A stretch of DNA of 64,000 nt from an uncultured Actinomycetes bacterium. GTDB lineage: Bacteria > Actinomycetota > Thermoleophilia > UBA2241. The translations under genes and the position numbers were made by a program. Below, piece after piece: positions 9,194 through 55,095 of this stretch. The notes under the pieces were generated by a model. It did not search any database and had not been told where the DNA came from. It saw only the letters and a list, made by a program, of their open reading frames with translations. Location of the stretch: assembly GCA_963767005.1 (NCBI GenBank), contig CAVYCN010000002.1:544001-608000 (forward strand). Reading direction: 5' to 3'. Positions within the stretch are counted from its first letter, which is position 1, and every line of letters starts with the position of its first letter.

Positions 9194-9296
9194 GTCGGTC
9201 GCTTGCCTTCCTTTCCGGCGTGCACAGGCGGTCCGTCGCTTTCCGGAGGTTGAGCCGGCGACCCAGCTGGACCGTGAAGGGTCGCCAAACTTAGGG

Positions 9297-9403: not shown

Positions 9404-12007
9404 CTACTTGGCCGCCAGCCAGGTGTCGCCCACGCCGATCGAGACGTCGAGCGGCGGCTCCATGGTGAAAGCGCCGCACATGGCGTCGCGCACGATCGGC
9501 AGGACGGGATCGACCTCGTCGTCGGGGCTCTCGAAGACCAGCTCGTCGTGGATCTGCAGCACGAGGCGCGTGATCAGGCCGGCCGCGGCGAAGGCCTTCG
9601 TCACGCGCAGCATCGCCACCTTGATGATATCGGCCGCGCTGCCCTGAAGCACGGCGTTGACGGCCAGGCGCTCGCCGAGCGAACGCTCGCGGAAGCTCGC
9701 GGCGCGCAGCTCGGGCACGGCCCGGCGGCGACCGAAGACGGTCGTCACGAAGCCGGCGTCGGTCGCCTCGGCGATCACCTTCTCGCGGAAGGCCTGCACC
9801 CGCGGGTAGCGCGCGAAGTAGGCATCGATGAAGGCCCTGGCCTCGTCGACCGGCATGTCGACCTGCTCGGACAGACCGAAGGCCGACAGGCCGTACATGA
9901 TGCCGAAGTTGGTCGCCTTGGCGCGCTCCCGCTGGGCCTTGGTGACCTGCTCCACCGGGATGCCGGCGACGGCCGCCGCCGTGACTCGGTGCACGTCCTC
10001 GCCGCGTTCGTAGGCGGCGATCAGGGCCGGCTCCTGGGCCAGGTAGGCCATGAGACGCAGCTCGATCTGCGAGTAGTCGGCGACGATCAGCCGCATGCCC
10101 TCGGCGGCGATGAAGCAGTCGCGGATCTGGCTGCCGAGCTCGGTGCGAATCGGGATGTTCTGCAGGTTGGGGTTCGTGCTCGACAGGCGGCCGGTCGAGG
10201 CGACCGTCTGGCGGAACGTGGTGTGCAGGCGGCCGGTGCGCGGGTCGATGCGCGCCGGCAGCGGCTCGAGGTAGGTGTTCACGAGCTTGGTGAGCTCGCG
10301 CCATTCTTCGACGAGCGGCACGAGCGGGTGCTGGTCGCGCAGCTGCCGCAGCACCCGCGCGTCGGTCGAGTAGCCCGTCTTGCCCTTGCGCATCGGCTGC
10401 AGGCCGAGGCGCGAGAACAGCACCTCGGCGAGCTGCTGGGGCGAGCCGACCGTGAACGGGCCGCCGGCGAGCTCGTACAAGCGGTCGCGCACCTCGTCGA
10501 TGCGGTCGCTCAGGCGCGCCGAGATCTCGCCGAGGCGGTGCGTGTCGATGGCCACGCCGACGGCCTCCATGCCGGCCAGCACGCGCACGAGCGGCAGCTC
10601 GATGTCGTGGAACAGCGTGTCGAGTCCGAGCTCGCCCAGCCGCACGCGCTGCTCGGCGGCCAGGCGCAGCGTCAGCACGGCCCGCGTGGCCGCCAGCGCC
10701 TCGAGGTGGGGGCCGTCGACCAGGTGCTCGGCGTCGGCCTGGGCGAGCGTGAAGAGGTCGTCCTCGGGCCGCTCCGGCTGGAGCAGGTAGGCGGCGATGT
10801 CGGTGTCAAAGGCGGGGTCGGCCGCCGCCGTCGGGAACTCGGGATACGACTTGGCGTCGTGAGCCACGACGTGCGGCGCCAGACGCCAGATGGCGCGCCA
10901 GTCGGCGCTGTCGAGACGGGCGGCGACGGCCTCGTCGCCGCCGTCTGCGACGGCGGCGACCCAGCCGTCGCCCTCGGGCACGAAGCCCACGGCTGCCGGC
11001 CCGCGCCCGAGGACGGCGAGCAGGGGCGCCGCGTCGGGCGCTACCACGAGGCGCGGGAAGGGGACGGCGGCGAGGCCGCCGGCCTCGCCGCCGTCCCCCG
11101 CTCCCTGCGCCGCTGCCATCTCGCGCAGGCGGCGTCCCAGGCTGTTGAACTCGAAGCGTCGGCAGAAGACCTCGGCCTCGCGATACGGCAGGGCATAGCC
11201 GGTCCGCCCGACGATTTTCACGATGTCCTCGTCGAGGGGCACGTCGAGCACCATGCAGGCGAGGTGCTTGGAGAGGCGCGCGGCCGGCTCGTGCTCGGCG
11301 AGCAGCGCGCGGCGCTTGTCGGAGCTGACCTCGCCGAGGCGCTCGTACAGGCTCTCGACCGTGCCGAACTGCTGCACGAGGGCGGCCGCCGTCTTGTCGC
11401 CGACACCCGGGATGCCGGGGATGTTGTCGGACGTGTCGCCCTTCAGGCCGATGAAGTCGGGGATCTGCGCCGGCGTCACCCCGAAGCGCTCGACCACCGC
11501 GGCCGGCGTGTAGATCTTGACGTCGGTGACGCCCCTGCCGGTGGTCACGACCCAGATGTCGTCGTCGACGATCTGCAGGGCGTCGCGGTCGCCGGTCACG
11601 ACGAGCGAGCGCCGGCCCTGGCGCTTGGCCTCTTCGGCGAGGGTGCCGAGGATGTCGTCGGCCTCGTACCCTTCCTTCAGCAGGTTGGGGATGCCGAAGG
11701 CGTCCATGAGTCCCGGCAGGTGCTCCCACTGCAGGGCGAGCGGGTCGGGCATCCGCGGCCGCTGCGCCTTGTAGCCGTCGAACTCCTCGTGGCGGAAGGT
11801 CTTCTCGCGCCCGTCCCAGGCCACGGCCACCGCCGACGGCTCGAACTCGGTGATGAGCTTGACGAGCATCTGGGCCAGGCCGAAGAGCGCGTTCGTGGGA
11901 AAGCCGTCCCGCGTGGCGATCGACTCGGGCAGCGCGAAGTAGGCCCGGTAGGCCAGGCTCGAGCCGTCAATGAGGATCAGGCGGTGCTTGACCGCGGCGT
12001 CGTCCAT
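9404..12007 (-). CDS. polA: DNA polymerase I
   Basis: 5'-3' exonuclease motifs (LIDGSSLAYRAYFA, YEADD, GDTSDNIPG) and polymerase motifs (TGRLSS..PNLQNIP, ADYSQIELR, KATNFGIMYG, LQIHDEL). Confidence 0.99.
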   Translation of the reverse strand: MDDAAVKHRLILIDGSSLAYRAYFALPESIATRDGFPTNALFGLAQMLVKLITEFEPSAVAVAWDGREKTFRHEEFDGYKAQRPRMPDPLALQWEHLPGLMDAFGIPNLLKEGYEADDILGTLAEEAKRQGRRSLVVTGDRDALQIVDDDIWVVTTGRGVTDVKIYTPAAVVERFGVTPAQIPDFIGLKGDTSDNIPGIPGVGDKTAAALVQQFGTVESLYERLGEVSSDKRRALLAEHEPAARLSKHLACMVLDVPLDEDIVKIVGRTGYALPYREAEVFCRRFEFNSLGRRLREMAAAQGAGDGGEAGGLAAVPFPRLVVAPDAAPLLAVLGRGPAAVGFVPEGDGWVAAVADGGDEAVAARLDSADWRAIWRLAPHVVAHDAKSYPEFPTAAADPAFDTDIAAYLLQPERPEDDLFTLAQADAEHLVDGPHLEALAATRAVLTLRLAAEQRVRLGELGLDTLFHDIELPLVRVLAGMEAVGVAIDTHRLGEISARLSDRIDEVRDRLYELAGGPFTVGSPQQLAEVLFSRLGLQPMRKGKTGYSTDARVLRQLRDQHPLVPLVEEWRELTKLVNTYLEPLPARIDPRTGRLHTTFRQTVASTGRLSSTNPNLQNIPIRTELGSQIRDCFIAAEGMRLIVADYSQIELRLMAYLAQEPALIAAYERGEDVHRVTAAAVAGIPVEQVTKAQRERAKATNFGIMYGLSAFGLSEQVDMPVDEARAFIDAYFARYPRVQAFREKVIAEATDAGFVTTVFGRRRAVPELRAASFRERSLGERLAVNAVLQGSAADIIKVAMLRVTKAFAAAGLITRLVLQIHDELVFESPDDEVDPVLPIVRDAMCGAFTMEPPLDVSIGVGDTWLAAK

Positions 12008-40896: not shown

Positions 40897-43407
40897 CTAC
40901 TTGACCGTCAGCGTGAGCGTGGCCGGCTTGGCCTGCCCGTTGCCGGCCAGGTCGGTCGCGGCGATCGTCACGCGGTAGACGCCGCGCGCCGCGGGCTTGA
41001 ACGCCCAGGCGGTGCGGGCACCGACCGCGACGGCCGGCAGCGTGACCGACTTCACGACCGCGCCGGCGCCCGACTTCACGATCAGCGTCACGCTCGCCCG
41101 CGGGCTCATGGCGTCGGCCACCCGATAGCCCAGGTGCACCGTGTGGCCGTGCTTCATCGTCACGGCGGTCGAGATCCACGACGCGGTCGGCGGCGCGGTG
41201 TCGACGTAGCCGCGTACCGTCACGGCGACCGTGCCCACCGTGTTCACCGCCCTCACCGCGACGGCGTAGGCGCCATCGGGCAGCGTCGCGCCCGCGCCAC
41301 CATGGCCGTCCCAGGCCCAGGTGTGCGCCCCGCTCGCCAGGGTGCCCAGCGCGGCGCGACGCACGACCTTGCCGGCGGCATCGGACACGCTCACGGTCAC
41401 CTTGGCGTTGCGTGTCGTGCGAAACGACAGCGTCGTCGCATCGTGCACGCCGTCGCCGTTCGGCGACAGCCAGACCGGCGTGAGGCGCGGATGGCCGAGC
41501 GTGTCGTCGACGACCAGGCTGTGCGTGGCCGTGGTCGAGTTGCCGGCCGGGTCGGTGGCCTGGAGCGTCAGGCTGTACGTGCCGTCGGGCGCGGCGCTCA
41601 GGCCGGTCGCGCCGCTCACCTTGCCGTCCCACGACAGCCGCGCACTGCCGGCGCGGACGGCGAGCGGCGCGAGCGTGCGCACCAGCACGCCGCGCGCGTC
41701 GCGCACCACGAGACCGACGCTGCAGCTCTCGCTGACGGAGAAAGTGAGGCCGACGGTGTCGGCGAGGCGGTCGCCGTTCGGGCTGATCAGCGCCGGCGAC
41801 AGCTTCAGGCCGGTCACCGCCGGCGGCACCGTGTCGAGCCGCACGGCCAGACTCGCGGGCCGTGCCGTGCCGTTCGCGCTCGTCGCGCTGAAGGCGGCGG
41901 TGTAGAGCCCGTCGGGCAGGTGCCGACCGGCGGCGTCGTGACCCGCCCAGGTCGCGGCAGCCGCGGCGCCGGTGCCCGAGAACTGGTCCACGACCGTGCC
42001 GCTCCCGTCGCTCACGGTGATCGTCCAGTCGTCCTTGCCGGAGAGCCCGGCGTGCAACGTGACCGTATCGCGCACCCCGTCGCCGTTCGGGCTGAACGCG
42101 GCCGGCGAGGCGGTGGGCGTGTAGATCTTGGGGTCACCGATGGCCGCGACCGCGGCGCGGATGGTCGGCAGCAGGCCGAACAGCACGTTCCCAGGACACT
42201 CGGTGTAGTTGACCTGCCGATGTCCCGAGATGACCGGTATCCTCACCCACTGGCCGGCGCGGTACTTCTGGGTGGTCAGGCACTCGACTCGGGCGGTGCC
42301 CTGCGGGTCCAGGTGAGACAGGTCGAGCTTCCATGCCAGCAGCCGCTCGAGCGACGAGAGCGCGGCCTTCGAGGGCGCCACGGTCTGGAAGGTGCCGATC
42401 AACGACACGCCCGTGCTCATGCTGTTGAAGCCCAGCACCTGAGCCCCGATCACGGCCTTGGCCACGCCGCCGTAGCGGCCTTCGTAGATGGTGCCGAAGC
42501 GGTCGATCAGGAAGTTGTAGCCGATGTCGTTCCAGCCGTTCACGCGTGTGTGGTAGTAGTAGATGCCGCGCACCAGGGCCGGCGCCTGGGCGCGCGTGTA
42601 GTCGTTGGCGTTCACCGTGTGGTGCACGAACGCACAGCGCACCTGGCCGTAGCTCGGCGACGCCGAGCGCAGGGCCTCGTCGGCGCCCCACTGCGCACGT
42701 GTGACGATCGCGGGTTCGGCCGGGCGCCCCAGCGGGGCGGGCACACCCGGACCCGCGGTGCCTGCGTCGGCGGCGGTCGCAGCGCTGCCGGCCGGCGCCG
42801 CGACGTCGGCCGTCGCGACCGTCGTCTTCGACTCGACGCAGGCCAGACGCACGTCGGTCACCGGCACGGCGCCGCCGCTGAAGGCGACCTCGTACTGCAC
42901 GTAGCGGGCCGCGCCCACCCAGACCGGCTCAGTCACGAGATCGGCACGCCCTTCGACGCTGCCGGCCGGTCCGCCGCCGTCGTCGGCGCGCAGCGTGAAC
43001 CACGGCGTCCAGGTGCGCCGATCGGCGCTCGTGCGCACGTGGAACTCGACCGTGCCGGCCCCGCCGGCCGTCGTGCGGAAGAGGATGCCGATCATGTCGA
43101 AAGGAGCGCCGGCGTCGACGGTCGCCGCGGGGCGTCCGTCGGGGCCGGTCACGTCCGGCAGCGCGAGGGCGCTCCGCAGGGCGGGGCCGTCGGCCACAGC
43201 GGCGACCGGCGCGGCGGCTGCGCCCGGCGTCGCCACGATGAAGCCGGTAGTCGGCGACGACGCCCAGGCGGGCGTCGCCGCGGCGCCCGCCCCCAGGGCG
43301 AGCGCGAGGGCGACCCCGAGCACGGCGGCGAGCCGGCGCGCGGTGCGCGGAGCGGCGGTCCTGGCGGCGGTGAGCGGTCGACCGAGGCGTCGAGACGGAC
43401 TGTGCAT
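40897..43407 (-). CDS. Secreted N-acetylmuramoyl-L-alanine amidase (PGRP/Amidase_2) with FlgD-type Ig-like repeats
   Basis: Signal peptide; TRAQWGADE, FVHHT, GWNDIGYNFLID, ISGHR, TECPG; three SPNGD.. repeats with WDG/DG.Y. Confidence 0.9.
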   Translation of the reverse strand: MHSPSRRLGRPLTAARTAAPRTARRLAAVLGVALALALGAGAAATPAWASSPTTGFIVATPGAAAAPVAAVADGPALRSALALPDVTGPDGRPAATVDAGAPFDMIGILFRTTAGGAGTVEFHVRTSADRRTWTPWFTLRADDGGGPAGSVEGRADLVTEPVWVGAARYVQYEVAFSGGAVPVTDVRLACVESKTTVATADVAAPAGSAATAADAGTAGPGVPAPLGRPAEPAIVTRAQWGADEALRSASPSYGQVRCAFVHHTVNANDYTRAQAPALVRGIYYYHTRVNGWNDIGYNFLIDRFGTIYEGRYGGVAKAVIGAQVLGFNSMSTGVSLIGTFQTVAPSKAALSSLERLLAWKLDLSHLDPQGTARVECLTTQKYRAGQWVRIPVISGHRQVNYTECPGNVLFGLLPTIRAAVAAIGDPKIYTPTASPAAFSPNGDGVRDTVTLHAGLSGKDDWTITVSDGSGTVVDQFSGTGAAAAATWAGHDAAGRHLPDGLYTAAFSATSANGTARPASLAVRLDTVPPAVTGLKLSPALISPNGDRLADTVGLTFSVSESCSVGLVVRDARGVLVRTLAPLAVRAGSARLSWDGKVSGATGLSAAPDGTYSLTLQATDPAGNSTTATHSLVVDDTLGHPRLTPVWLSPNGDGVHDATTLSFRTTRNAKVTVSVSDAAGKVVRRAALGTLASGAHTWAWDGHGGAGATLPDGAYAVAVRAVNTVGTVAVTVRGYVDTAPPTASWISTAVTMKHGHTVHLGYRVADAMSPRASVTLIVKSGAGAVVKSVTLPAVAVGARTAWAFKPAARGVYRVTIAATDLAGNGQAKPATLTLTVK

Positions 43408-43598: not shown

Positions 43599-44957
43599 CT
43601 ACTTCTTGTCCTCTTTGGCCTGCGTCATGCACGACCACACCGGCTGGTAGACACGGTCGACCTCGCTCGCGTACTCGTCGAGCTCGGTGCGCAGCTCGGT
43701 GATCATGTTCTCCGCGCCGACGTGAGTCGGATGCGCGCCGGTGACCTCGATGATCTCGCGCGAGTGGTGCGGGTTGTCGATCAGCATGCACGGCATGAGC
43801 AGGTTGTGGTTGAAGGGCTGGCGGCGCCGGATCTCCTGGAAGAACGGCGACGAGAAGGCCTGCTTGAGCGACACGTCGTGCACGTTGTCGGTCGCGAAGT
43901 GCGTGAAGATGCAGGGCTCGACCCAGCCCTCGTTGTTGATGTGGATGTAGTGCTTGCCGGCGATGCAGCCCTTGACGTACGGCGCGTCGCCCCAGAAGTC
44001 GACCGGGAAGAGCGCCTTGGTGTTGCGCACGCGCTCGATGCCCTCGCGGAACCGGTTGCGTTCGGCCGGCGTGAGCATGAGGCTCATGTCGGGGTTGGCG
44101 CCGACCGGCATGTAGAGGAAGTTCCAGGCGAGCATCGCGCCCTTCTCGACCATCAGGTCGGTGAACTCGTCGCTGACCAGCATCTCGAAGTTCTTGCGCG
44201 TGACGGTGGCCGAGTAGCCGAACACCATGCCGCGCTTGCGCAGCCCATCCATGGTCTGCATGATCTGGTCGAAGATGCCGGGTCCGCGGCGCGCGTCGGT
44301 GGGCTCCCGGCCGCCCTCGATGCTGAGCATGGGAGCCACGTTGCCGAGCGCGGCCAGGCGGTCGAGGGTGTCTTCGTCGAGCAGCGTGCCGTTCGTATAG
44401 ACCTGGAAGTAGACGTCGGGGTTGGCCGCGTAGAAGTCGAGCAGGTCGGGCCGGAAGAAGGGCTCGCCTCCGAGGATGGTGATCAGGTAGACGCCCATCT
44501 CGTTGGCCTGGTCGACGATCCGCTGCAGGGTGGCGACGTCCATGTCGCTGTCGCGCGAGTACTCGCCGGCGAAGCAGCCCTCGCAGGTGAGGTTGCAGCG
44601 CATGGTGGGGCTGATCAGGATCGTGAACGGCGTGGGCACGCCCTCGCGCTCGGTGAACTCGGAGCGCTTGGCCGAGCCGCGCAGCATGGTGTTGATCACG
44701 AAGCACTCGATGAAGCGGTTGCGCGCCCGCGGGCTGAGCTGCCCGACCACGTGCTTGGCGATGTGCAGCGCGGGGTGGTCCTCGATGACCTTGTCGCGCA
44801 CGAACAGGATCTCCGCCTTGTGCGCCTCGGGCGTGAGCTTCTCGGCGAGATTGAACGCTTTGACGATCTTGCCCTTGTCGTCACTCGTGGCGAGCTTGAG
44901 AATCTGATTGATGGTGCGTCGCTGGACCGCCGTGTACAGGCCCTCGGTGGTGCTCAT
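43599..44957 (-). CDS. Radical SAM protein with C-terminal SPASM/twitch-like domain
   Basis: CNLTCEGC, GGEP, YTNGT, GCIAG..YIHIN..GWVEPC and PCMLIDNP. ATG 44957 follows GGGGAGGGGAG. Confidence 0.92.
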   Translation of the reverse strand: MSTTEGLYTAVQRRTINQILKLATSDDKGKIVKAFNLAEKLTPEAHKAEILFVRDKVIEDHPALHIAKHVVGQLSPRARNRFIECFVINTMLRGSAKRSEFTEREGVPTPFTILISPTMRCNLTCEGCFAGEYSRDSDMDVATLQRIVDQANEMGVYLITILGGEPFFRPDLLDFYAANPDVYFQVYTNGTLLDEDTLDRLAALGNVAPMLSIEGGREPTDARRGPGIFDQIMQTMDGLRKRGMVFGYSATVTRKNFEMLVSDEFTDLMVEKGAMLAWNFLYMPVGANPDMSLMLTPAERNRFREGIERVRNTKALFPVDFWGDAPYVKGCIAGKHYIHINNEGWVEPCIFTHFATDNVHDVSLKQAFSSPFFQEIRRRQPFNHNLLMPCMLIDNPHHSREIIEVTGAHPTHVGAENMITELRTELDEYASEVDRVYQPVWSCMTQAKEDKK

Positions 44958-45085
44958 CGTCTCCCCTCCCCTGAGGCTGTCCTCGAGTCTGGCGCCCATC
45001 ATACCAAACGAAGCCGCTCATCTTCGAACCGGTGCGTGCGTGGCTATCCTCATACCCGACCGCGGCGGCTTGCCGCGGCCGTTGA

Positions 45086-45135
45086 CTGCGGCGACATCGG
45101 CGGCGCCGCGCGTGGCGCCGCCGATGTCGCCGCAG
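45086..45135. repeat. Perfect 22-bp-arm inverted repeat in the divergent intergenic region
   Basis: CTGCGGCGACATCGGCGGCGCC-gcgcgt-GGCGCCGCCGATGTCGCCGCAG. Confidence 0.9.
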
Positions 45136-45189
45136 CGGCTACGCATTCGCAGGCCCTACCCCCTACAGGAAGCGCACCACCTGTCGATA

Positions 45190-45280
45190 GACGGATTGAC
45201 AAGGGCAAACCTGCCGCGAGGCAGGGACGCAAAGCCAGAGGTCTTGAGGTGATCAAGATAGCTCGGTTGCCGCAAACGAG
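45190..45280 (+). ncRNA. Cyclic di-GMP-I (GEMM-I) riboswitch
   Basis: AGGGCAAACC-TGCC-GCGA-GGCA-GGGACGCAAAGCC...GGTCTTGA...TCAAGATAGC...GGTTGCCG matches the GEMM-I core (GGCAAAC, GNRA-capped P2, GACGCAAAGC, P3, GGTTRCC). Ends approximate. Confidence 0.92.
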
Positions 45281-45407
45281 AGCCATCCAGGCTCACAGCA
45301 CCCTCCTCTCTCCGCCTCTGCCCGCGTCGACCCCTCGTCGCCGGCATCAGACCTGACGGTCGGGGCTGCCGGCGTCCCGATCGTCAGTGCGTCGCGGAGG
45401 CGGTGTG

Positions 45408-47018
45408 ATGAAACGCAGATTCCTCGTGGTGGCAGCCGCGCTGCTGGTCGCGGTGGTGCTCGCCTGGGGCGGCACCGCCTGGGCCGACCAGACGAGCGCA
45501 CAGATCGATCCGAGCGTGCTCACGGAGCTCGACGCCGCTGGCGGCGCCAGCGTGCCGGTCATCGTCTATGCGACCCCCGGCCACCTCGCCGACCTGACCG
45601 CAGAGCTCGGCGCGACCAACGTCGATGAATCGCTCGCGCTGATCGGCGCCGTCTCGACCGACGTCACGCCCGACACGATCACAACCGTCGCCGCGCTGCC
45701 CTACACCGACTACGTCGCCGCCGACGCCCCCATCTTCGGCACCGACTATCAGGCGAGTCTCGACGTGACCAACGCCACGATCGGGCTTGGCGCCATCGCA
45801 CCGCCCGCGCCCGTGGCGCACGGGCTCGACGGTGCAGGTGTCGGTGTGGCCGTGCTCGACAGCGGCAGCGCCGACGTACCAGACCTCGATGCCGCCAACG
45901 GCCAGTCGAGGGTCGTCGCCTTCGTCGACTTCGTGAACGGCCGGCGCCGCATGTACGACGACGGCGGGCACGGTACCTTCGTCGACGGCATCATCGCCGG
46001 CAACGGCGCAGGCTCGGTGCCGGTCGACCAGGGCGGCAAGGCCGCGACGCAGTACCGCGGCGTCGCGCCCGACGCGAACATCGTCTCGCTCAAGGTCCTC
46101 GACCGGCACGGCGACGGTCGCTCCTCGGCGCTCGTCGCCGCCATCGCCTGGGCGATCGCCCACCGGCAGCAGTACGACATCCGCGTCATGAACATCTCGG
46201 TCGAGGGGAACGTCACCTGTCCGGCCGCTTACGACCCGGTCGATCGTGCCGTCGACGCCGCCTGGAAGGCGGGCATCGTCGTCGTCTGCGCCGCCGGCAA
46301 CGAGGGCGCGTTCGGCGAAGGCGGCATCCTCTCCCCCGGCAACGATCCCTACGCGGTCACCGTCGGCGCCGCCGATACGCAGCAGACCGACGACCCGAGC
46401 GACGACGCCGTGTGCTCGTACAGCTCGATCGGTCCGACCCAGTTCGACGAGTTCGCCAAGCCCGACATCGTCGCCCCCGGCAACCACATCGTCTCGCTGC
46501 GGGCGCCCGGGAGCTGGGTCGACCTGAACTACCCGCAGACTCGCGTGCCGGTGTCGAGCTACATCCCGGGCGCCTCCAACTGGACACCGAGCGCCTACGC
46601 CGTCATGTCGGGCACGAGCGCCGCGGCCCCGGTCGTCGCCGGCGCGGCGGCGCTCATGATCCAGCAGGACCCGACGCTCACGCCGGGCGAGGTCAAGCTG
46701 CGCCTCATGGACAGCGCTCAGCCGATCGCAACGAGCGACAAGTACGCCGCGGGCGCCGGTGAGCTCGACGTCGCGGCCGCCCTCAAGGACGGGGCGACCA
46801 CGACCGGCTACGACACCTCCGCCAAGCTCGGCAACGGCACCACGATCCTGCCGATCGACGTCCAGCTCCAGTGGCAGCGCTACAGCTGGTCGCGCTATAG
46901 CTGGTCGCGCTACAGCTGGTCGCGCTACTCGTGGTCGCGCTACAGCTGGTCGCGGTACTCCTGGTCGAGATACACCTGGAGCAGGTACTCGTGGTCGGTG
47001 ATCATCGACGGGGAGTGA
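45408..47018 (+). CDS. Secreted S8 subtilisin-like serine protease with C-terminal Trp-rich pentapeptide repeats
   Basis: Signal peptide (MKRRFLVVAAALL...AWA); catalytic triad VAVLDSG / GHGT / SGTSAAAP; AAGN oxyanion hole; KPDIVAPG. Confidence 0.95.
   Translation: MKRRFLVVAAALLVAVVLAWGGTAWADQTSAQIDPSVLTELDAAGGASVPVIVYATPGHLADLTAELGATNVDESLALIGAVSTDVTPDTITTVAALPYTDYVAADAPIFGTDYQASLDVTNATIGLGAIAPPAPVAHGLDGAGVGVAVLDSGSADVPDLDAANGQSRVVAFVDFVNGRRRMYDDGGHGTFVDGIIAGNGAGSVPVDQGGKAATQYRGVAPDANIVSLKVLDRHGDGRSSALVAAIAWAIAHRQQYDIRVMNISVEGNVTCPAAYDPVDRAVDAAWKAGIVVVCAAGNEGAFGEGGILSPGNDPYAVTVGAADTQQTDDPSDDAVCSYSSIGPTQFDEFAKPDIVAPGNHIVSLRAPGSWVDLNYPQTRVPVSSYIPGASNWTPSAYAVMSGTSAAAPVVAGAAALMIQQDPTLTPGEVKLRLMDSAQPIATSDKYAAGAGELDVAAALKDGATTTGYDTSAKLGNGTTILPIDVQLQWQRYSWSRYSWSRYSWSRYSWSRYSWSRYSWSRYTWSRYSWSVIIDGE
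46881..46997 (+). repeat. 15-bp coding tandem repeat encoding eight Y(S/T)WSR units (the last lacks its R)
   Basis: TACAGCTGGTCGCGC-type units whose differences are mostly synonymous codon changes. Confidence 0.95.
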
Positions 47019-48544
47019 GCGGCGCCTCTGAGCCGATGCGCCCGGCAGCGGCCGCGCAATCGCGCGCGGCCGTCACCGCGTTCGTCGTCGCGACGGCGCT
47101 CGCCGCCTGCGCGGCTCTCGTCTTCGCCCACACCCAGGGCGCCGCCGACCTGCCTCCCGGCGTGCTCGCCTTCGTGGTGCTCGTGTTCGTCACCAGCCTG
47201 CGCGACGTGCGCCTTCCGGTGGTCGGCCACGTCACGCTCACGTTCGTGCCGGTGCTCGCCGCGCTCGTCGTCTTCGGTCTCTGGCCGGCGCTCGTCGTCG
47301 TCGTCTTCTCGGGCCTGGCGACCATCGGGGTCACGCGCGACCCCGAGAAGATCCTCTTCAACGTCAGCAGCTACATCGTCGCGATGTTCGCGGCCGGCAC
47401 CGTCTATCTCGTGCTCCTGCCCGCCGCGCCCACCCTGTCGACGAAGGTCCTGCCGGCCTTCGCCGCCACCGGGGCCGACTTCCTCGTCAGCACGGCCATG
47501 CTGGCCACGGTGATCGCACTGTCCTCGCAACAGAACCCCGTTGTCGTCTGGCAGCGCAACTACCAGTGGGGCTTCCCGAGCTACCTCACGGGCGCCTCGC
47601 TCGCGCTGTGCGTCGCCTGGCTCTACCTGCGGATCGGCGTCGCCGGGCTCGCGCTCGGCGTGCCGCCGCTGTTCCTCATCTGGTACTCCTACGACGTCTA
47701 CACCGGACGCCTGCGCGACCGTGCCGCGTACACGAGCGAGGTGGCTTCGTTTCGCGAGGAGCTCGCCGCCGCGGTACGCTCGCAGGACGAGCTGCGTTCC
47801 GCTCAGCACCGGGTCGCCGCCGAGATCGAGCGGGCGCGCGGCATCCAGGCCGACCTGCTGCCGCGCCAGGCGCCCGACGTACAGGGGCTCGAGCTCGCCC
47901 ACCGCATCGAGTTCATGACCGAGATGGGCGGCGACTACTTCGACTTCGTCCCGCTGGACGACGGCCGCCTGGGCATCGTCTGTGGCGACGTCATGGGCAA
48001 GGGCCTCGCGGCCGCTCTCATCATGACGATGGCGCGCAGCATGATCCTCGGCGCCGCCCGCGACGGACGCCGCCCCGGCGAGGTCCTGTCGGCGGTGAAC
48101 GATGGCCTGACCCGTGATCTCGCCGGCCAGTCGGCGCCCTCGTTCCTGACGCTCGCCTACGCCATCTACTCGCCGTCACAACGCGAGCTCGTCATCGCCA
48201 ACGGCGGACACAACCCGCTGCTCGTGTTCGGCTCCGGCGGGCGCCGCGAGCTGCCCTCGCGGGGCAGCATGCTGGGCGTGCGCACCGACCTCGAGTTTCC
48301 CGAGGACCGTGTCGCGCTCGCGCCCGGCGACTCGTTCGCGCTCTTCACCGACGGTCTCACCGAGGCTCGCGGCGAGGACCGCGAGCTCTTCGGCGTGGAG
48401 CGTCTCGCCGACTCCCTGGCCGACGCCTCCGGCACCTCGGCCGCGGCGACCGTCGAGGCCGCCTGGCAAGCGGTGAGCGACTTCCGCGACGGCACGCCGG
48501 CGAGCGACGACGCCACCCTGCTGATCGGCCGCGTCGTCGCCTGA
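47015..48544 (+). CDS. Membrane sensor domain fused to SpoIIE/PP2C (RsbU-like) phosphatase
   Basis: GTGA overlap with the protease stop. About 7-8 TM helices, a coiled coil, then ARGIQADLLP, GGDYFD, GDVMGKG, NGGH, FTDGLTEA and DDAT. Confidence 0.92.
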   Translation: MSGASEPMRPAAAAQSRAAVTAFVVATALAACAALVFAHTQGAADLPPGVLAFVVLVFVTSLRDVRLPVVGHVTLTFVPVLAALVVFGLWPALVVVVFSGLATIGVTRDPEKILFNVSSYIVAMFAAGTVYLVLLPAAPTLSTKVLPAFAATGADFLVSTAMLATVIALSSQQNPVVVWQRNYQWGFPSYLTGASLALCVAWLYLRIGVAGLALGVPPLFLIWYSYDVYTGRLRDRAAYTSEVASFREELAAAVRSQDELRSAQHRVAAEIERARGIQADLLPRQAPDVQGLELAHRIEFMTEMGGDYFDFVPLDDGRLGIVCGDVMGKGLAAALIMTMARSMILGAARDGRRPGEVLSAVNDGLTRDLAGQSAPSFLTLAYAIYSPSQRELVIANGGHNPLLVFGSGGRRELPSRGSMLGVRTDLEFPEDRVALAPGDSFALFTDGLTEARGEDRELFGVERLADSLADASGTSAAATVEAAWQAVSDFRDGTPASDDATLLIGRVVA

Positions 48545-48591
48545 TCGAGCCATCCAGAATCGGCGATTTCAGCCGATACACAACAGCGGAG

Positions 48592-49365
48592 ATGGTCATG
48601 CCAGCGCACGAGAGCAAGGTGAACCCCGCCACCCTCCAGGTGATGCGCTACGACGCTCGCCGGGGCACGCTGTCGGTCATCGTCGGCGAGGCCAGCGGCA
48701 TCCCGCGCGAGATCCTCGGCCAGCGCGCGATCGAAGCCATGCGGGCGCGCAGCTTCATCTGCCACACGACCGAGGCCGACACGCTGCTGGGCGCCGACGA
48801 GATCTGCTTCATCCCGCGCGGCGACCGCTGCGAGATCGTGAGCATCCACACCAACGGCTGGCGCCGCCACCACGGCGACCATCGCCGCAGCCTCGTCGAG
48901 ATCCTGAACGATCTCGCCGCGGCCGTCGCCCGCGGCACGCTCACGTTCCTCGACCGCGGTGAGCTCGAGGCGGTCAGGGCCGAGGGACACGCCGTGCTCA
49001 CCTGCACGATCGACGACACCGCCTCGCTCGCCCAGGCGCGCGCCGCGGTGGCTCAGGTCCTGTCCGACCACGGCGTCCCCGCCGACGCCCGGCGGCGCCT
49101 CGAGCTCTGCGTCTCCGAGGCCACCACGAACATGCTCGTGCACGGCGGCGGCGGCGGCACCATGAGCCTCGTGCGCGTCGCGGATCGTCTGCGTATCATC
49201 GTCGCTGACCGGGGACCCGGCCTGAACTTCATCAACTGGACCGAGACGGGCTCACGGCAACCCTCGATGGGCTACGGCTACAAGATCATTCTTGATAACC
49301 TTGAGCGCGTGTACCTGCACACCGGCGACGAGGGCACGACCCTCGTCCTCGATCACACGATCTAG
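48592..49365 (+). CDS. Anti-sigma factor/Ser-Thr kinase (RsbW-like HATPase_c) with unrecognised N-terminal domain
   Basis: VSEATTNMLVHG, ADRGPG, GYGY and GTTL motifs. Confidence 0.8.
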   Translation: MVMPAHESKVNPATLQVMRYDARRGTLSVIVGEASGIPREILGQRAIEAMRARSFICHTTEADTLLGADEICFIPRGDRCEIVSIHTNGWRRHHGDHRRSLVEILNDLAAAVARGTLTFLDRGELEAVRAEGHAVLTCTIDDTASLAQARAAVAQVLSDHGVPADARRRLELCVSEATTNMLVHGGGGGTMSLVRVADRLRIIVADRGPGLNFINWTETGSRQPSMGYGYKIILDNLERVYLHTGDEGTTLVLDHTI

Positions 49366-49379
49366 AAGGGACGGGACCG

Positions 49380-49694
49380 ATGCTGCACACGCGCGTTGAG
49401 ACCGCGGACACGCCCGTCATCCACCTCGAGGGCGAGATCGACCTCGACTCGGCGGAGACGTTCCGTTGGGTCGTGACCGACGCGGTGCGAGGCGCGACCC
49501 AGGTCGTGCTCGACTTCGCCAAGGTCACGTTCATCGACTCGTCCGGCACGGGGCTGCTCGTCCGCCTCTGCCTCGACTACAAGTCGCAGGGCGTGCGGCT
49601 GCTCCTCACCAACATCCCGCCCGCCGTCGACGACGTCTTCACCATGCTCAAGGTGCGGACCCTCGTCGGCGACGAATCGTTCCTCGACGCCTAG
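49380..49694 (+). CDS. STAS-domain anti-anti-sigma factor (RsbV-like)
   Basis: LEGEIDL and VLDFAKVTFIDSSG with the phospho-acceptor Ser. Confidence 0.92.
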   Translation: MLHTRVETADTPVIHLEGEIDLDSAETFRWVVTDAVRGATQVVLDFAKVTFIDSSGTGLLVRLCLDYKSQGVRLLLTNIPPAVDDVFTMLKVRTLVGDESFLDA

Positions 49695-49761
49695 CCTCCC
49701 GCCGCGGCGCTGCTCCCGGCGGGTCCGCCGCGCGCCCCGACGCAGGTCCGCGCGCCGCGAC

Positions 49762-51858: not shown

Positions 51859-54800
51859 GTGTCGACCGTGCGCACGCCACGCCGCACCACGCCGCGCCGA
51901 GGCGTCCGGCCCCCGGGCACGCCGGGCGGGCGCCCCGCGCTGCGGCACGCCGCGCGCCAGCCCCAGCGGCTCATGCGCAGCGTCCTCGGCCCGGTCGACA
52001 TCGCCGCCTCGACCATGGCCAACATCGCCCCGGCCATGAGCTTCTACTTCGGCTTCGGCTTCCTCGCGCTCACGGCCGGCATCGCCTCGCCGCTCACGAT
52101 CGTCGCCGCCGGCGTCGCCATCGCCTTCCTGGCCAACACGCTGGCGCAGTTCTCGCGGGCCCATCCGTCGACCGGCTCGTTCATCACCTTCATCGGCAAG
52201 GCGTTCGGCCCGACGAGCGCGATCGCGACCGCCGTCATCCTCATCACCGGCTACGTGATCGCCATCATCTCGGTGCTCGTCATGTCGGGCGGTTTCACGG
52301 CCATCTTCCTGCACCGTTACGTGCCCGGCGTACCGGCCTCGTCGTGGCCCTGGTTCATGGTCGTCTTCGTGAGCGCGGCCGCCTACCTCATGGTGCGCGG
52401 CGTGCACATCTCGACTCGCTGGGCCGGGATCTTCTTCGCTTTCGAGATCGCGGTACTCGTCGTGGTCACGTTCAGCGCCCTGATCCACCACGCCGACCAC
52501 CTGACGCTCCATCCGTTCGACCCGCGCTACCTGTCGAACGGCTTCAAGGGCCTGGGCCTCGGGTTCCCGCTGGCCGTGTACCTGTTCATCGGCTGGGAGA
52601 ACTCGGCCGCCCTCGCCGAGGAGACCGAGAACCCGCGCCGCAACGTGCCCCGCGCCCTCTTCGCCAGCGTCGGCCTGATGATGCTGAGCTACGTCCTGTT
52701 CGCCTACGCCACCGTCGAGGGCTTCGGCGAGAACGTCGCCGCCCTGACCGCCGCGCCGATCCCCTTCATCACGCTGGCCGACAGCGTGCTCGGCGTGCTC
52801 GCCTTCCTCGCCTACCTCGCCGGCGTGACGTCGACCCTCGCCTGTCTGATCGCCGCGGTGAACTCGCAGTCGCGCCTGCTGTTCCACGCCGGCCGCGAGG
52901 GTCTGCTGCCGTCGTGGGTCGGCCGCGTGTACGCGCGCCGGCGCACGCCGGTGAACGCCCTCATGACCTTCACCGGTATCGGCCTCGTGCTCGTCTTCGC
53001 CTGGTCGTTCGGGCAGCACATCGACCCGGTGACGCTGTTCGCCGAGGCCTCGACGCTCGGCACCATCCTCGTGGTCGTCGTCTATCTCGTCGCCAACCTG
53101 GCACTGCCGGTCTTCTACCGCAAGCACCACCCCGACCAGTGGTCGCCCCTGCCCCACCTCGTCATCCCGCTCGTCGGCGCCGGCCTCATCGCCCTGCCGA
53201 TCTACGAACTCGTCAAGCCGGGGCAGGCCTCACCCTACGACCTGTTCCCGTACGTGGCGCTCGCGGTGATCGTGGTCGCCGTGGCCTACGCGGTGGCGCT
53301 GAACGCGCGCGACAAGACCTTGGCCGACCGCGTCGGCTCGCTCGTCGCCGACGACGCCGCCGACGGCAAGTTCGCCGGCTTCCTCGACGATGACGAGGAG
53401 CAGGTCCGCCACCTGCATCGCATCGCCCGCTGCCTGAACGAGGACCGCGACACCAAGCCGGCCCTGCAGAACGCCTTGCGCGTCGTCGCCGAGACGCTGG
53501 GCGCCGCCTCGGCGGCCGTGTTCGTCGTGCGTCCGGGCGACGTCGCCGAAGCCCTCACCGTCTGCGGCGACGCGCGCCGCAGCTTCCCCTACGCGCCGCT
53601 CGATCTCCGCCATCCGCTGCTCGCCCGGCTCGTGCGGCGTCCGGGCCTGCTCGAGGTCGTCGACGTCGACGGCCTGCCAGCGCCCCTGCTCGCCGTCGTC
53701 GCTCCCGACGCCGCCCGGGTCACCCTCGCGCCCCTGCCGGCCGGCCCCGGGGTCGCCGCACTCCTGCTGCTCAGCCGGCGGTCCGACGCTCCGCTCAGCG
53801 CGCGCAAGGCGGCCTTCGTCGCCGTCGTCTGCGAGACCCTGGGACCGGCCATCACGAGCCGCGCGCTGGCCGAAGAGTCGCATCACACGGCGGCCGTGCT
53901 CGAGACCGCCTACGCGGTCTCGCGGGCGATCACCCAGAGCCTCGACCTCGAGCACACCTACCGCGAGATCGCACGAAGCGCGGCGCGCGTCGCACGCGGC
54001 TCCCACTGCCTGTTGTTCGAACTCGAGCGCGGCACGGGCGACCATCTCGCCGTCGCCTGCTCCGATCCGGAGAGCGAGGACCTGCTGGGCACGCGCGTGC
54101 GGCTGCTCGAGAGCGCCGACCGGCCGCGCCAGCGAGCCGGCGGTGGTTTTGTCGTCCGGCCGGCGGCCACCCGCGGCGGCGGCCAGACCAGCAAGTTCTC
54201 GCTGGGCGGCCACCTCGGCGCCCGCCTGGCCGGCATGTTCAACGCCGACTCCTCGGTGCTCGTGCCCCTGTTCGCGCAGCAGGTGCCCGTCGGCTCGCTG
54301 CTCGTGTACGCGGCCGGCCGGCGGCGCCGCTTCTCGCCGCTCGAGGTGGCCGAGCTCGGCAGCGTGGGCGAGCAGGCCGCGATCGCCATCCACAACGCCC
54401 AGCTCTACCGCGACCTCACCGATAGCCGGGCGAGCGTCGAAGCGCTGCTCGGGCGTCTCACGCGGATCCGCGACCAGGAGCGCCAGGGCCTCGCCCGCGT
54501 GGTCCACGACGACATCGTGCAGTCCATCGTGGGCGCGGTCTACCGCCTCGACCTTCTGCGCGACGGCGTGGCCGGCGATCGGGTGGCCGAGTTCGACGAG
54601 GCGGTCGCCGGTCTGCGCCAGAGCATCGACGACGCCCGCCGGGTGATCTGGGAGCTGCGCCCGCCGGCGATCGAGGGCCTCGGCCTGCCGGCGGCGCTGC
54701 GCTCGCTGGCGGAGCGCAGCCACGACGGCGGCGCCCGCGTCGCGGTGTCGATCGAGGACGTCGTCGGCCTCTCCGACGCGGTCACGACCGGCCTCTACAA

Positions 54801-55095
54801 GATCGCCCGCGAGGCCCTCACCAACGCCCTGCACCACGCCGGCGCGCGCCGCATCGGCATCTCGCTCGCCGGCGCGCCCGCGGGCGAGCACGGCGGCGCG
54901 CACCTCGTCGTCGAGGACGACGGTGTAGGCTTCGTGGCCGACGCGAGCCGCGACGGCGGCCACTACGGGACGGTGATGATGGAGGAGCAGGCGACGCTCA
55001 TCGGTGCGACCCTGTCGATCGAATCACAGCCCGGTCGCGGCACGCGCGTCCGGGTCGTCGTGCCGGCGCCCCGCGCCGCGGCGGCGGCGAGATGA
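51859..55095 (+). CDS. APC family amino-acid permease fused to GAF domains and a HisKA_3/HATPase_c histidine kinase
   Basis: One 1078-aa ORF: roughly 12-TM APC domain (to about 53355), two GAF-like regions, H-box ERQGLARVVHDDIVQ, N-box EALTNALHHA, G1 EDDGVGF and GTRV. Confidence 0.9.
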   Translation: MSTVRTPRRTTPRRGVRPPGTPGGRPALRHAARQPQRLMRSVLGPVDIAASTMANIAPAMSFYFGFGFLALTAGIASPLTIVAAGVAIAFLANTLAQFSRAHPSTGSFITFIGKAFGPTSAIATAVILITGYVIAIISVLVMSGGFTAIFLHRYVPGVPASSWPWFMVVFVSAAAYLMVRGVHISTRWAGIFFAFEIAVLVVVTFSALIHHADHLTLHPFDPRYLSNGFKGLGLGFPLAVYLFIGWENSAALAEETENPRRNVPRALFASVGLMMLSYVLFAYATVEGFGENVAALTAAPIPFITLADSVLGVLAFLAYLAGVTSTLACLIAAVNSQSRLLFHAGREGLLPSWVGRVYARRRTPVNALMTFTGIGLVLVFAWSFGQHIDPVTLFAEASTLGTILVVVVYLVANLALPVFYRKHHPDQWSPLPHLVIPLVGAGLIALPIYELVKPGQASPYDLFPYVALAVIVVAVAYAVALNARDKTLADRVGSLVADDAADGKFAGFLDDDEEQVRHLHRIARCLNEDRDTKPALQNALRVVAETLGAASAAVFVVRPGDVAEALTVCGDARRSFPYAPLDLRHPLLARLVRRPGLLEVVDVDGLPAPLLAVVAPDAARVTLAPLPAGPGVAALLLLSRRSDAPLSARKAAFVAVVCETLGPAITSRALAEESHHTAAVLETAYAVSRAITQSLDLEHTYREIARSAARVARGSHCLLFELERGTGDHLAVACSDPESEDLLGTRVRLLESADRPRQRAGGGFVVRPAATRGGGQTSKFSLGGHLGARLAGMFNADSSVLVPLFAQQVPVGSLLVYAAGRRRRFSPLEVAELGSVGEQAAIAIHNAQLYRDLTDSRASVEALLGRLTRIRDQERQGLARVVHDDIVQSIVGAVYRLDLLRDGVAGDRVAEFDEAVAGLRQSIDDARRVIWELRPPAIEGLGLPAALRSLAERSHDGGARVAVSIEDVVGLSDAVTTGLYKIAREALTNALHHAGARRIGISLAGAPAGEHGGAHLVVEDDGVGFVADASRDGGHYGTVMMEEQATLIGATLSIESQPGRGTRVRVVVPAPRAAAAAR

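Follow-up and report, generated by a model that had tools for sequence, protein, structure and literature searches.

An operon led by a c-di-GMP-I riboswitch and kept in one Thermoleophilia family likely lets c-di-GMP set the levels of two products, a protease held at the cell surface and a partner switch that senses the envelope. The host is an uncultured soil actinobacterium (Thermoleophilia), and the operon lies within the whole 64,000-nucleotide stretch of DNA that we analysed (the window, 544001-608000 of its contig). Four co-directional open reading frames downstream of the aptamer encode an S8 protease, a membrane SpoIIE/PP2C phosphatase, a HATPase_c_2 kinase and a STAS protein (Table 1). 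A first-pass annotation had proposed a GEMM-I riboswitch followed by four such genes, and the covariance model and the reading frames bear this out. The operon joins three known building blocks, namely a c-di-GMP riboswitch, the gene of a secreted protease and a PP2C/kinase/STAS switch, and in the literature searched we found nothing on such a combination. It is a convenient system in which to ask what MASE9 membrane sensors detect, what sigma-less partner switches control and what role the strictly conserved [KR][YF]xW[ST] tail of the protease plays.

Operon structure and linkage in relatives

The intergenic gaps are -4, 47 and 14 nt in operon order, and no terminator-like site was found on the + strand inside the operon or in its leader. 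The GTGA overlap between the protease stop (47016-47018) and the GTG start of the phosphatase, hereafter the sensor (47015), had been claimed earlier; it is real in the sequence and recurs in the form NTGA in 18 of 27 protease-bearing loci of relatives. Through this overlap, the protease and the phosphatase would be made in coupled amounts. No RNA run was found to contain this stretch.

Table 1. Features of the operon and its surroundings (window coordinates)
Feature	Position	Strand	Basis
Radical SAM/SPASM enzyme, neighbour of the operon	43599-45002	divergently transcribed	
Conserved CGATA, possible -10 element	45185..45189	+	recurs in relatives' upstream stretches
c-di-GMP-I riboswitch aptamer	45195..45275	+	cmscan c-di-GMP-I clan, E 1.7e-14
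Putative expression platform	45276..45407	+	sequence, fold, leader conservation, Shine-Dalgarno accessibility model
Prepro-subtilase (S8)	45408..47018	+	Pfam Peptidase_S8 5e-44
C-terminal tail: 8 pentapeptide units (RYSWS x7, RYTWS x1) + VIIDGE	46878..47015	+	translation
Membrane phosphatase (sensor)	47015..48544	+	Pfam SpoIIE 4.6e-48
HATPase_c_2 serine-kinase-like protein	48592..49365	+	Pfam HATPase_c_2 2.3e-13, residues 142-253
STAS anti-sigma-antagonist-type protein	49380..49694	+	Pfam STAS 1.6e-18

We compared the operon with 68 further related loci, all from uncultured Thermoleophilia of one family. The protease gene was found directly upstream of the sensor gene in 66 of the 66 assessable loci, and the kinase and STAS genes were present in 67 and 64 of the 68, respectively, with the misses falling at contig ends. 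All 27 loci of relatives in which the protease gene is present keep the order protease-sensor-kinase-STAS, and a 28th (L060) starts inside the sensor gene. Full-length sensor orthologues occur in 28 of the 36 family genomes, and about 70 species-level genomes of this uncultured lineage from soil and peat preserve the arrangement. Three relatives, G020 and G027 (each 98% complete) and G015 (81% complete), yielded no protease and no full-length sensor; protease and sensor are indeed found together or not at all in the relatives searched.

This linkage bears on an idea from the first-pass annotation, namely that the exported protease, or peptides from its Trp-rich tail, is the ligand of the coupled membrane phosphatase and feeds an autocrine or quorum-like signal into the partner switch. 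Linkage in other genomes had been set beforehand as a point on which this idea could fail, and it survived there, with the strict adjacency, the conserved overlap and the joint absence from the three genomes all counting in its favour. However, all of the loci belong to one family, and the linkage therefore reflects one origin, a single evolutionary event. Moreover, the operon is lost as a unit, and since such a loss removes both genes at once, the linkage marks a shared unit and not a ligand-receptor pair. We regard the protease, or its tail peptides, as an improbable ligand.

Riboswitch and expression platform

The aptamer scored 73 bits against the canonical model RF01051 (GEMM-I; cut-off 35) and 69.9 bits against the GGC-variant model RF03167 (cut-off 59), which cmscan reports only as the E-value winner within the clan. 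In the cmscan alignment, the ligand-contact positions equivalent to G20, A47 and C92 of the Vc2 aptamer are G, A and C in the window, and the G20 and A47 equivalents are G and A in 54 of 54 aligned leaders. The GGC variant, presumably named for a G replacing A at the A47-equivalent position, was ruled out, since its model consensus has G where the window and all 54 leaders have A. Model score and ligand-contact bases identify it as a canonical c-di-GMP-I (GEMM-I) riboswitch, with predicted binding of c-di-GMP. No sigma-70 consensus promoter was found upstream of it; the CGATA element lies 10-20 nt ahead of the aptamer in relatives of several genera, among the upstream stretches listed.

Between the aptamer and the protease start (ATG, 45408), the pyrimidine tracts CCCUCCUCUCUCCGCCUC (about 45300-45322) are complementary to the Shine-Dalgarno sequence GGAGG at 45396-45400, and CGCCUC-like tracts and GGAGGCG are kept across the leaders. 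No intrinsic terminator was found on the + strand of this platform (45276-45407). These features suggest that the riboswitch acts on translation, with the leader pyrimidine tracts pairing with the Shine-Dalgarno sequence. In the accessibility model of 54 leaders, the Shine-Dalgarno sequence had a mean unpaired probability of 0.32 when the native aptamer was free, of 0.25 when the aptamer was shuffled and of 0.14 when it was taken out; this value dropped in 29 of the 54 leaders and rose in one. Because the shuffled aptamer still gives 0.25, most of this modelled effect is unspecific. The Shine-Dalgarno sequence of the window's own leader is predicted to be paired in both states (0.01 and 0.01), which, together with the largely unspecific effect, leaves the direction of switching weak. 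With this qualification, c-di-GMP would tune translation of the operon through what is probably an OFF switch.

A riboswitch precedes the protease in 21 of the 25 assessable family genomes, the four misses having been checked individually, and in 55 of the 62 loci of a wider set (53 by motif and two more by cmscan). It is missing in the other seven, and control by c-di-GMP is therefore not obligatory for the module. A close parallel is Clostridioides difficile, in which, according to PMC6366702, class I c-di-GMP riboswitches repress the secreted protease gene zmpI (PPEP-1), and type IV pili are also under the control of c-di-GMP riboswitches. As in that organism, a c-di-GMP-I riboswitch here precedes a secreted protease gene, as read from the sequence, and the second c-di-GMP-I riboswitch of the genome sits ahead of pilin genes. 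In contrast, the protease is an S8 subtilase where C. difficile has a zinc Pro-Pro endopeptidase, the platform seems to act on translation instead of through a terminator, and a signalling module is added to the operon. No substrate adhesins were identified here.

The protease and its repeat tail

The protease consists of a signal peptide (about 45408-45485), a propeptide-like N-terminal domain, a catalytic domain and the repeat tail. Residues D151, H188, N298 and S404, which are invariant in 34 orthologues, provide the Asp-His-Ser triad and the oxyanion Asn in the order of the subtilase (S8) family, and each of the 48 listed orthologues has a hydrophobic N-terminus. The AF2 model (pLDDT 66) has a beta-alpha-beta N-terminal domain. 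We also considered a mycosin, the T7SS-associated type of S8 protease, and rejected it, as the TIGR03921 score was 141 bits against a cut-off of 278.75 and the C-terminus is the repeat tail instead of the hydrophobic helix that anchors mycosins in the membrane.

The pentapeptide units span 46878-46997 and are followed by VIIDGE. Identical residues in these units are coded by different codons, and such synonymous differences between identical units show that the tail peptide is under purifying selection. The family consensus is [KR][YF]xW[ST] with 2-27 units (63 loci), the tail being conserved across genera and variable in copy number; the charge of the units also varies, as in KFKWT versus DFDWS. 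The motif occurs only once in a six-frame translation of the window's own genome. A tail profile gave 258 matches, and of the 120 listed, 119 carry PF00082 and the remaining one is a mis-called fragment; among these listed matches, the tail is found on this protease family alone. AF2 gave no confident fold for it: the pLDDT of the tail is <50 when the full protein is modelled, and a 27-unit tail by itself reaches 54. For this reason, we infer from composition only that the tail, being cationic and aromatic, would hold the protease at the envelope after export. Subtilases cleave after aromatic residues, and an unfolded tail could simply be degraded.

Alternatively, the tail would be a folded, pentapeptide-repeat-like (Rfr-type) beta-helix acting as a binding domain, in which [ST] at i-2 and the central [FY] both point inward, and Trp and Lys/Arg form outward stripes. 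The strict five-residue period, which places a small residue two positions from an aromatic one, is compatible with what we take to be the register of the pentapeptide-repeat families (PF00805, PF13599), and the alternation of basic and acidic units in long tails suggests stacking. Long tails also matched Pentapeptide_4, with a best score of 27 bits (E 5e-6); however, all scores are below the curated cut-off of 38, and the window's own tail gave no match at E up to 10. Furthermore, the AF2 models, at low confidence, show no beta-helix, and tails of 2-3 units are too short for one four-unit coil. Unlike pentapeptide-repeat proteins, the tail has an invariant Trp at a position that is unconserved in the family, and it is appended to a secreted subtilase. 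Membership in PF00805 or PF13599 was rejected on the scores and models, and we consider a beta-helix unlikely.

The neighbouring radical SAM (rSAM)/SPASM gene raises another reading, in which the tail is a RiPP-like substrate of this enzyme and receives, for example, Trp-to-Lys/Arg cyclophane cross-links on W-[ST]-[KR], as in darobactin and the triceptides. The rSAM gene lies between an amidase gene and the protease in 56 of the 62 assessable loci, the enzyme has weak similarity to the peptide-modifying SPASM enzymes PqqE, SuiB, SkfB and MftC (the last at 91 bits against a cut-off of 265), and the W-S-K triplet of the tail resembles what we take to be the darobactin cross-link site. Nevertheless, rSAM orthologues with 59-66% identity are encoded in G020, G027 and G015, all without the protease, and orthologues also occur in other families that lack the sensor (three of the five genomes of f4 and three of the four of f6). 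Conversely, no orthologue was found in G033 (97% complete), which has kept an eight-unit tail, the gene lies elsewhere, beside a Na+/H+ exchanger, in G018 and G023, and the tail is kept in six of six loci without the rSAM gene. The phyletic patterns of enzyme and tail thus disagree, unlike those of a maturase and its substrate in a darobactin- or triceptide-type RiPP system. The rSAM gene is not tied to the tail, and this pattern leaves cross-linking of the tail hardly credible and close to refuted.

The MASE9-type sensor, the partner switch and its candidate targets

The phosphatase comprises a MASE9-type domain (about 47015-47700), a linker and a SpoIIE/PP2C domain (about 47957-48535). Its membrane part has eight hydrophobic segments, two of them short, which fits the roughly 7-8 TM helices counted earlier. 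Against MASE9 (Pfam PF20972; cut-off 24.3), the full protein scored 23.5 bits and the TM part alone 25.7 bits, and 22 of the 23 sensor orthologues matched at E up to 0.01 (best 2.6e-7). A profile search with the sensor domain retrieved 2728 proteins at E up to 0.001. We scanned 51 long proteins ranked below the close family, picked from 150 listed of the 2728, for their output domains, and these distant relatives carried HD_5 (HD-GYP type; 23), histidine kinase (16), GGDEF-EAL (2), SpoIIE (2) or none (8); many of them also match MASE9. Judged by these profiles, the TM domain probably belongs to the widespread, promiscuous MASE9 superfamily with varied signalling outputs. The comparison with MASE families suggested along with the first-pass annotation yields a probable assignment to MASE9, and the HD-GYP, GGDEF/EAL and histidine-kinase outputs elsewhere weaken the idea of a dedicated coupling.

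Assuming positive-inside topology, the sensor has short outer loops, and conservation within the domain is lowest there (means of 0.30 and 0.48, compared with 0.7-0.9 in the helices), a pattern that does not favour an extracellular pocket dedicated to a peptide. Lys/Trp-rich peptides, for their part, partition into membrane interfaces. The tail might be a tethered or self-released, membrane-partitioning ligand that the MASE9 phosphatase reads inside the bilayer, in a c-di-GMP-gated autocrine circuit that would directly convert extracellular proteolysis into the phosphorylation state of STAS; we think it doubtful that this is the case. Peptide-level selection on the tail and its presence only on this protease, among the matches listed, speak for it, as would the sensor's proposed mode of binding: Galperin and Chou, who defined MASE9, argue in their preprint that ligands bind within the membrane (10.1101/2021.11.05.467447). 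Apart from the outer loops, however, it is opposed by the many outputs that MASE9 domains serve in organisms without this protease and by the 2-27 units of differing charge, which would be odd for a defined peptide signal. If it were true, the tail would be the first known ligand of any MASE9 domain, and with the tail or the protease as the cue, signals from the cell surface would reach gene control in a new way. Otherwise, the operon would still be a clear example, at the sequence level, of a signalling module and envelope remodelling placed together under c-di-GMP in Actinomycetota.

The sensor shares with MASE9, as 10.1101/2021.11.05.467447 describes it, about eight hydrophobic segments, two of them short, and poorly conserved outer loops. 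It differs in that MASE9-SpoIIE is not among the architectures that we saw named there, in the rarity of the SpoIIE fusion in our sample of distant relatives, and in invariant motifs of its own subfamily (DLRE[VI][RK]LP, TRDPxK and NYQWG.P.Y).

In the mechanism that we favour, the cue read by the MASE9 domain would come from the membrane or the envelope and may be a consequence of protease action. The cue would drive the dephosphorylation of STAS-P, after which STAS would sequester the kinase and thereby release a target whose gene is not linked to the operon. The partner switch likely reports on the cell envelope; the quorum- or matrix-sensing role put forward earlier is not supported.

The domain make-up of a partner switch, which had been recognised in the first pass, is confirmed by Pfam, by TIGR00377 (anti-sigma-antagonist superfamily), against which the STAS protein scored 62.8 bits (cut-off 53.45), and by motifs. 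The translations contain what we take to be the PP2C motifs (GDYFD, GDVMGKG, TDGLTEA and SDDATLL), the kinase N-box (EATTNMLVH) and G1 box (DRGPG), and the STAS serine motif (FIDSSG). The trio thus has the full set of partner-switching components, catalytic and phospho-acceptor motifs included, and is predicted to be active. The kinase (257 aa; 51.5 bits against the RsbA family, far below the cut-off of 210) has an N-terminal extension of about 140 residues before HATPase_c_2, for which no PDB or Atlas relative was found; an alternative start, ATG 48598, lies 7 nt after GGAG.

Bacillus subtilis has two well-known partner switches, SpoIIE-SpoIIAB-SpoIIAA (sigma F) and RsbU/RsbP-RsbW-RsbV (sigma B). 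The module resembles them in its PP2C/SpoIIE phosphatase, which is membrane-bound as SpoIIE is, in its HATPase_c_2 serine kinase and in the phosphorylatable serine motif of its STAS protein. Unlike in these systems, the sensor is of the MASE9 type and does not have SpoIIE's own membrane domain, the kinase is extended, the module stands behind a riboswitch with predicted translational coupling to a secreted protease, and the operon comes without a linked sigma gene. Indeed, the earlier remark that the operon lacks a sigma factor extends to the whole window, which contains none of the genome's 24 Sigma70_r2 matches.

The "sigma-factor switch" of the first-pass annotation was thus an assumption, made for a module with no linked sigma gene and a kinase whose N-terminal extension is unexplained. 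That extension may point to a non-sigma output, and the trio could control, through the kinase extension or STAS, something other than a sigma factor, such as an enzyme of c-di-GMP metabolism. A precedent is SiaA/SiaB/SiaC/SiaD of Pseudomonas aeruginosa, a biofilm-tied PP2C/kinase/STAS-like switch that controls a diguanylate cyclase with no sigma factor. The present module is likewise a membrane PP2C phosphatase with a kinase and a STAS-like partner, is linked to c-di-GMP and lacks a sigma factor; however, c-di-GMP is the output there and the input, via the riboswitch, here, and the match of the phosphatase to the SiaA model is weak (48 bits, far below the cut-off of 700). A non-sigma output is conceivable but on balance rather unlikely, as the STAS protein passes the anti-sigma-antagonist model, no GGDEF, EAL or HD-GYP gene was seen among the operon genes, and the genome offers possible sigma targets. 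It has about 15 HATPase_c_2 matches over the cut-off, and three other short HATPase_c_2 genes likewise do not adjoin sigma genes. Candidate targets of the switch are two SigB/F/G-like sigma factors that have no anti-sigma gene as a neighbour, and one of them is encoded in a type IV pilus cluster, beside the other c-di-GMP riboswitch of the genome.

Operon organisation and conservation

The best-supported reading of the region, judged from sequence, is an operon that a c-di-GMP-I riboswitch would govern and in which a subtilase, exported and bearing a tail, is coupled with a MASE9-PP2C/kinase/STAS partner switch (Table). All parts of the observation made in the first-pass annotation were confirmed, namely a GEMM-I riboswitch ahead of four co-directional genes, a GTGA overlap between the protease stop and the sensor start, a sensor with about 7-8 TM helices fused to SpoIIE, and the absence of a sigma factor from the operon. 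The STAS protein also exceeded the cut-off of the NCBI anti-sigma-antagonist superfamily model, and the gene that follows it is a convergent peroxiredoxin. A look-up of sequencing runs listed none of RNA that contains 45150-49750. Literature searches joining the c-di-GMP riboswitch with partner-switching returned nothing related, and a search on riboswitches and subtilisin-like proteases in Actinobacteria returned no paper.

Features of the operon and its surroundings; positions are in the window unless contig C2 of its own genome (G000) is named
Feature	Position	Strand	Remarks
Secreted-looking amidase protein	40897-43407	-	836 aa; N-acetylmuramoyl-L-alanine amidase, three FlgD-Ig-like and Big domains
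Orphan radical SAM/SPASM protein	43599-45002	-	467 aa; N-terminal extension of about 120 aa
GC-rich inverted repeat	45086-45136		arms of ~24 nt, almost loopless; between radical SAM start and riboswitch
c-di-GMP-I riboswitch	45195-45275	+	single riboswitch in cmscan of the window
S8 protease	ATG 45408 to stop 47016-47018	+	GGAGG at 45396-45400; Peptidase_S8, 5e-44 (Pfam)
Membrane phosphatase/sensor	GTG 47015 to 48544	+	SpoIIE, 4.6e-48 (Pfam)
Kinase-like protein	48592-49365	+	HATPase_c_2, 2.3e-13 (Pfam)
STAS protein	49380-49694	+	STAS, 1.6e-18 (Pfam)
Permease fusion protein	51859-55095	+	1078 aa; amino-acid permease fused to GAF, HisKA_3, HATPase_c
Second c-di-GMP-I riboswitch (locus L002)	G000:C2:501907-501986	-	63 bits
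Sigma factor over SigBFG cut-off	C2:511532-512206		

Full-length sensor orthologues were found in 28 of 36 same-family genomes (52-75% identity), and the matches in 24 other-family genomes were confined to the C-terminal half that holds SpoIIE. In these 28 loci the order, contig permitting, was amidase and radical SAM gene (both on the opposite strand), protease, sensor, kinase and STAS. The membrane-domain alignment was then scanned against 185,579 species genomes to give 68 loci, all from MAGs labelled, with three exceptions, as Thermoleophilia, Actinomycetes or Actinomycetota. As a result, the protease lay directly upstream of the sensor in 66/66 assessable loci, the other two beginning at a contig end, and the kinase followed in 67 and STAS in 64 of the 68, the misses being contig ends. 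This co-occurrence in other genomes is the linkage anticipated by the first-pass proposal that the protease, or peptides of its Trp-rich tail, is the ligand of the membrane phosphatase, and it is consistent with that proposal. In 18/27 loci the sensor has a GTG or ATG, in frame, that shares bases with the stop of the protease. The riboswitch was located just 5' of the protease in 21/25 assessable family genomes, the four misses being upheld by permissive cmscan, and in 55/62 loci of the wider set. Both the protease and a full-length sensor were missing from what was detected in the related genomes G020 and G027 (each 98% complete) and G015 (81%); the protease stands at a contig end in G017 and G034.

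Synteny of the amidase gene with the operon extends to most relatives. The radical SAM protein is conserved above its neighbours, at 60-95% identity, and its gene adjoins the protease in 56/62 loci. Its divergent position beside the protease suggested that it might cross-link the W-[ST]-[KR] triplets of the tail, as in darobactin or triceptides. However, orthologues occur in other families and in the protease-less genomes G020, G027 and G015, while none was found in G033 (97% complete), which nevertheless keeps the tail; in G018 and G023 the gene lies elsewhere in the genome, beside a Na+/H+ exchanger. On this phyletic pattern we rejected a radical SAM/RiPP modification of the tail. Near the downstream end of the operon in G033 we also detected an nhaA-I RNA motif (RF03057; 44.9 bits, cut-off 37), seen at 10013-10070 (-) in locus L062 and equally at 9225-9282 (-) in L134, which represent the same contig.

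The aptamer and its leader

In cmscan the riboswitch came out under RF03167, the 'c-di-GMP-I-GGC' variant (69.9 bits, cut-off 59), but the canonical c-di-GMP-I model RF01051 outscored it in bits (73, cut-off 35). We take a G at the A47-equivalent position to be the base behind the name of the variant; this position is the canonical A in the window, and also in 54/54 aligned leaders of relatives. We thus dropped the variant label and read the aptamer as an ordinary c-di-GMP-I (GEMM-I) one.

No terminator-like sites were found in the leader or between the operon genes, and pyrimidine tracts in the leader show complementarity to GGAGGCG, which is conserved. We computed the accessibility of the Shine-Dalgarno sequence in 54 leaders as mean unpaired probability, which was 0.32 with the whole leader free versus 0.14 with the aptamer removed from play; accessibility went down in 29/54 leaders and up in 1/54. 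Since a shuffled-aptamer control gave 0.25, most of this effect is unspecific, and the window's own Shine-Dalgarno sequence was predicted to be paired in both states. At most, the modelling hints weakly at an OFF switch that acts on translation. Such a switch would agree with C. difficile, where zmpI, which encodes a secreted protease, is repressed through a class I riboswitch (PMC6366702). The inverted repeat upstream of the aptamer has one genomic copy; relatives do not share its sequence and hold different GC-rich hairpins at this site.

The sensor domain and the tailed protease

Eight hydrophobic segments, of which two are short, lie within the N-terminal 260 residues of the sensor. The whole sensor fell marginally under the MASE9 cut-off (23.5 versus 24.3 bits) and its membrane part alone exceeded it (25.7 bits), with MASE9 matches in 22/23 sensor orthologues. 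A membrane-domain profile matched 2728 proteins in a library of 1.84 billion; 26 of the matches had E-values of 1e-30 or lower, and 931 had 1e-10 or lower. We scanned for outputs in 51 distant relatives, which were long proteins ranked below the close family and picked among the matches listed, and found 23 with HD_5 (HD-GYP type, mostly with GAF-GGDEF), 16 histidine kinases, two PAS-GGDEF-EAL proteins, two with SpoIIE, and eight without a detected output domain; many also matched MASE9. These varied outputs and MASE9 matches place the sensor domain, by profile similarity, in a promiscuous membrane-sensor superfamily. The nature of this domain does not favour the protease or its tail as the ligand, a reading that is possible but unlikely in spite of the strict linkage. 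When alignment A1 (sensor membrane domain) and alignment A3 (tail) were co-folded, the score was 0.00, which we counted neither for nor against this reading.

In the preprint that defined MASE9, the periplasmic segments are described as short and poorly conserved, and ligand binding within the membrane is proposed (10.1101/2021.11.05.467447). Likewise, under a positive-inside, N-in topology, the two outer loops of the operon's sensor had conservation means of 0.30 and 0.48, compared with inner loops at 0.66-0.83 and helices at 0.56-0.90. The sensor likely reads the state of the membrane or envelope.

The N-terminus of the protease is hydrophobic and signal-like, a property shared by all 48 orthologues listed, and its D151, H188, N298 and S404 show no variation among 34 sequences. 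In the AF2 model (pLDDT 66, pTM 0.74), a beta-alpha-beta N-terminal domain resembling a subtilisin propeptide precedes the catalytic domain. The C-terminus consists of seven RYSWS units and one RYTWS, followed by VIIDGE. Since Ser and Arg codons vary between units, the peptide is conserved, rather than a DNA repeat. Tails of relatives share the [KR][YF]xW[ST] design in 2 to 27 units, with variants such as EVAWT, DYEWA and DFDWS, and a conserved end, [VIT][LIM][ILT]x G[QE]. The motif occurs once in a six-frame translation of the own genome. A profile built from 24 tails and run against longer proteins matched 258, and 119/120 of the matches listed carry PF00082, the sole exception being a mis-called fragment. 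Long tails matched Pentapeptide_4 below threshold (27 bits, cut-off 38), and the window's own tail did not match it. AF2 gave no confident fold for the tail within the full protease (pLDDT under 50) or for a 27-unit tail by itself (pLDDT 54), and a literature search with the literal repeat strings found no relevant paper. Judged solely by its Lys/Arg-plus-aromatic composition, the tail likely holds the exported protease at the envelope.

The protease frame is interrupted in four MAGs, by a stop after two tail units in L037 (G004) and by several frame breaks in L047 (G028), L101 and L135; these breaks could stem from a repeat that collapsed in assembly or from sequencing errors as well as from real decay.

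Candidate outputs of the partner switch

All 24 Sigma70_r2 matches in the genome fall outside the window. HATPase_c_2 matches above the cut-off number about 15 in this genome, and three other short kinase genes of this type that we examined were likewise unlinked to sigma genes, so that no kinase-sigma pairing can be inferred. The second and sole other c-di-GMP-I riboswitch of the genome directly precedes two type IV pilin genes, and directly upstream of it lies a SigB/F/G-like sigma factor (C2:502127-502792; 171 bits on the SigBFG model, under the cut-off of 234), followed by pilC, pilT and pilB. The partner switch may target this sigma factor. Another candidate is the only sigma factor over the SigBFG cut-off, which has no anti-sigma gene beside it.

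The operon kinase carries an N-terminal extension of 140 residues beyond HATPase_c_2, for which an Atlas search gave no usable match; a PDB sequence search with the kinase gave no match. Because this extension is unexplained, the switch may possibly have a non-sigma output, as does the Pseudomonas SiaABCD network. Separately, the permease fusion protein encoded downstream of the operon looks, from its domains, like a transporter-linked histidine kinase ('transceptor').
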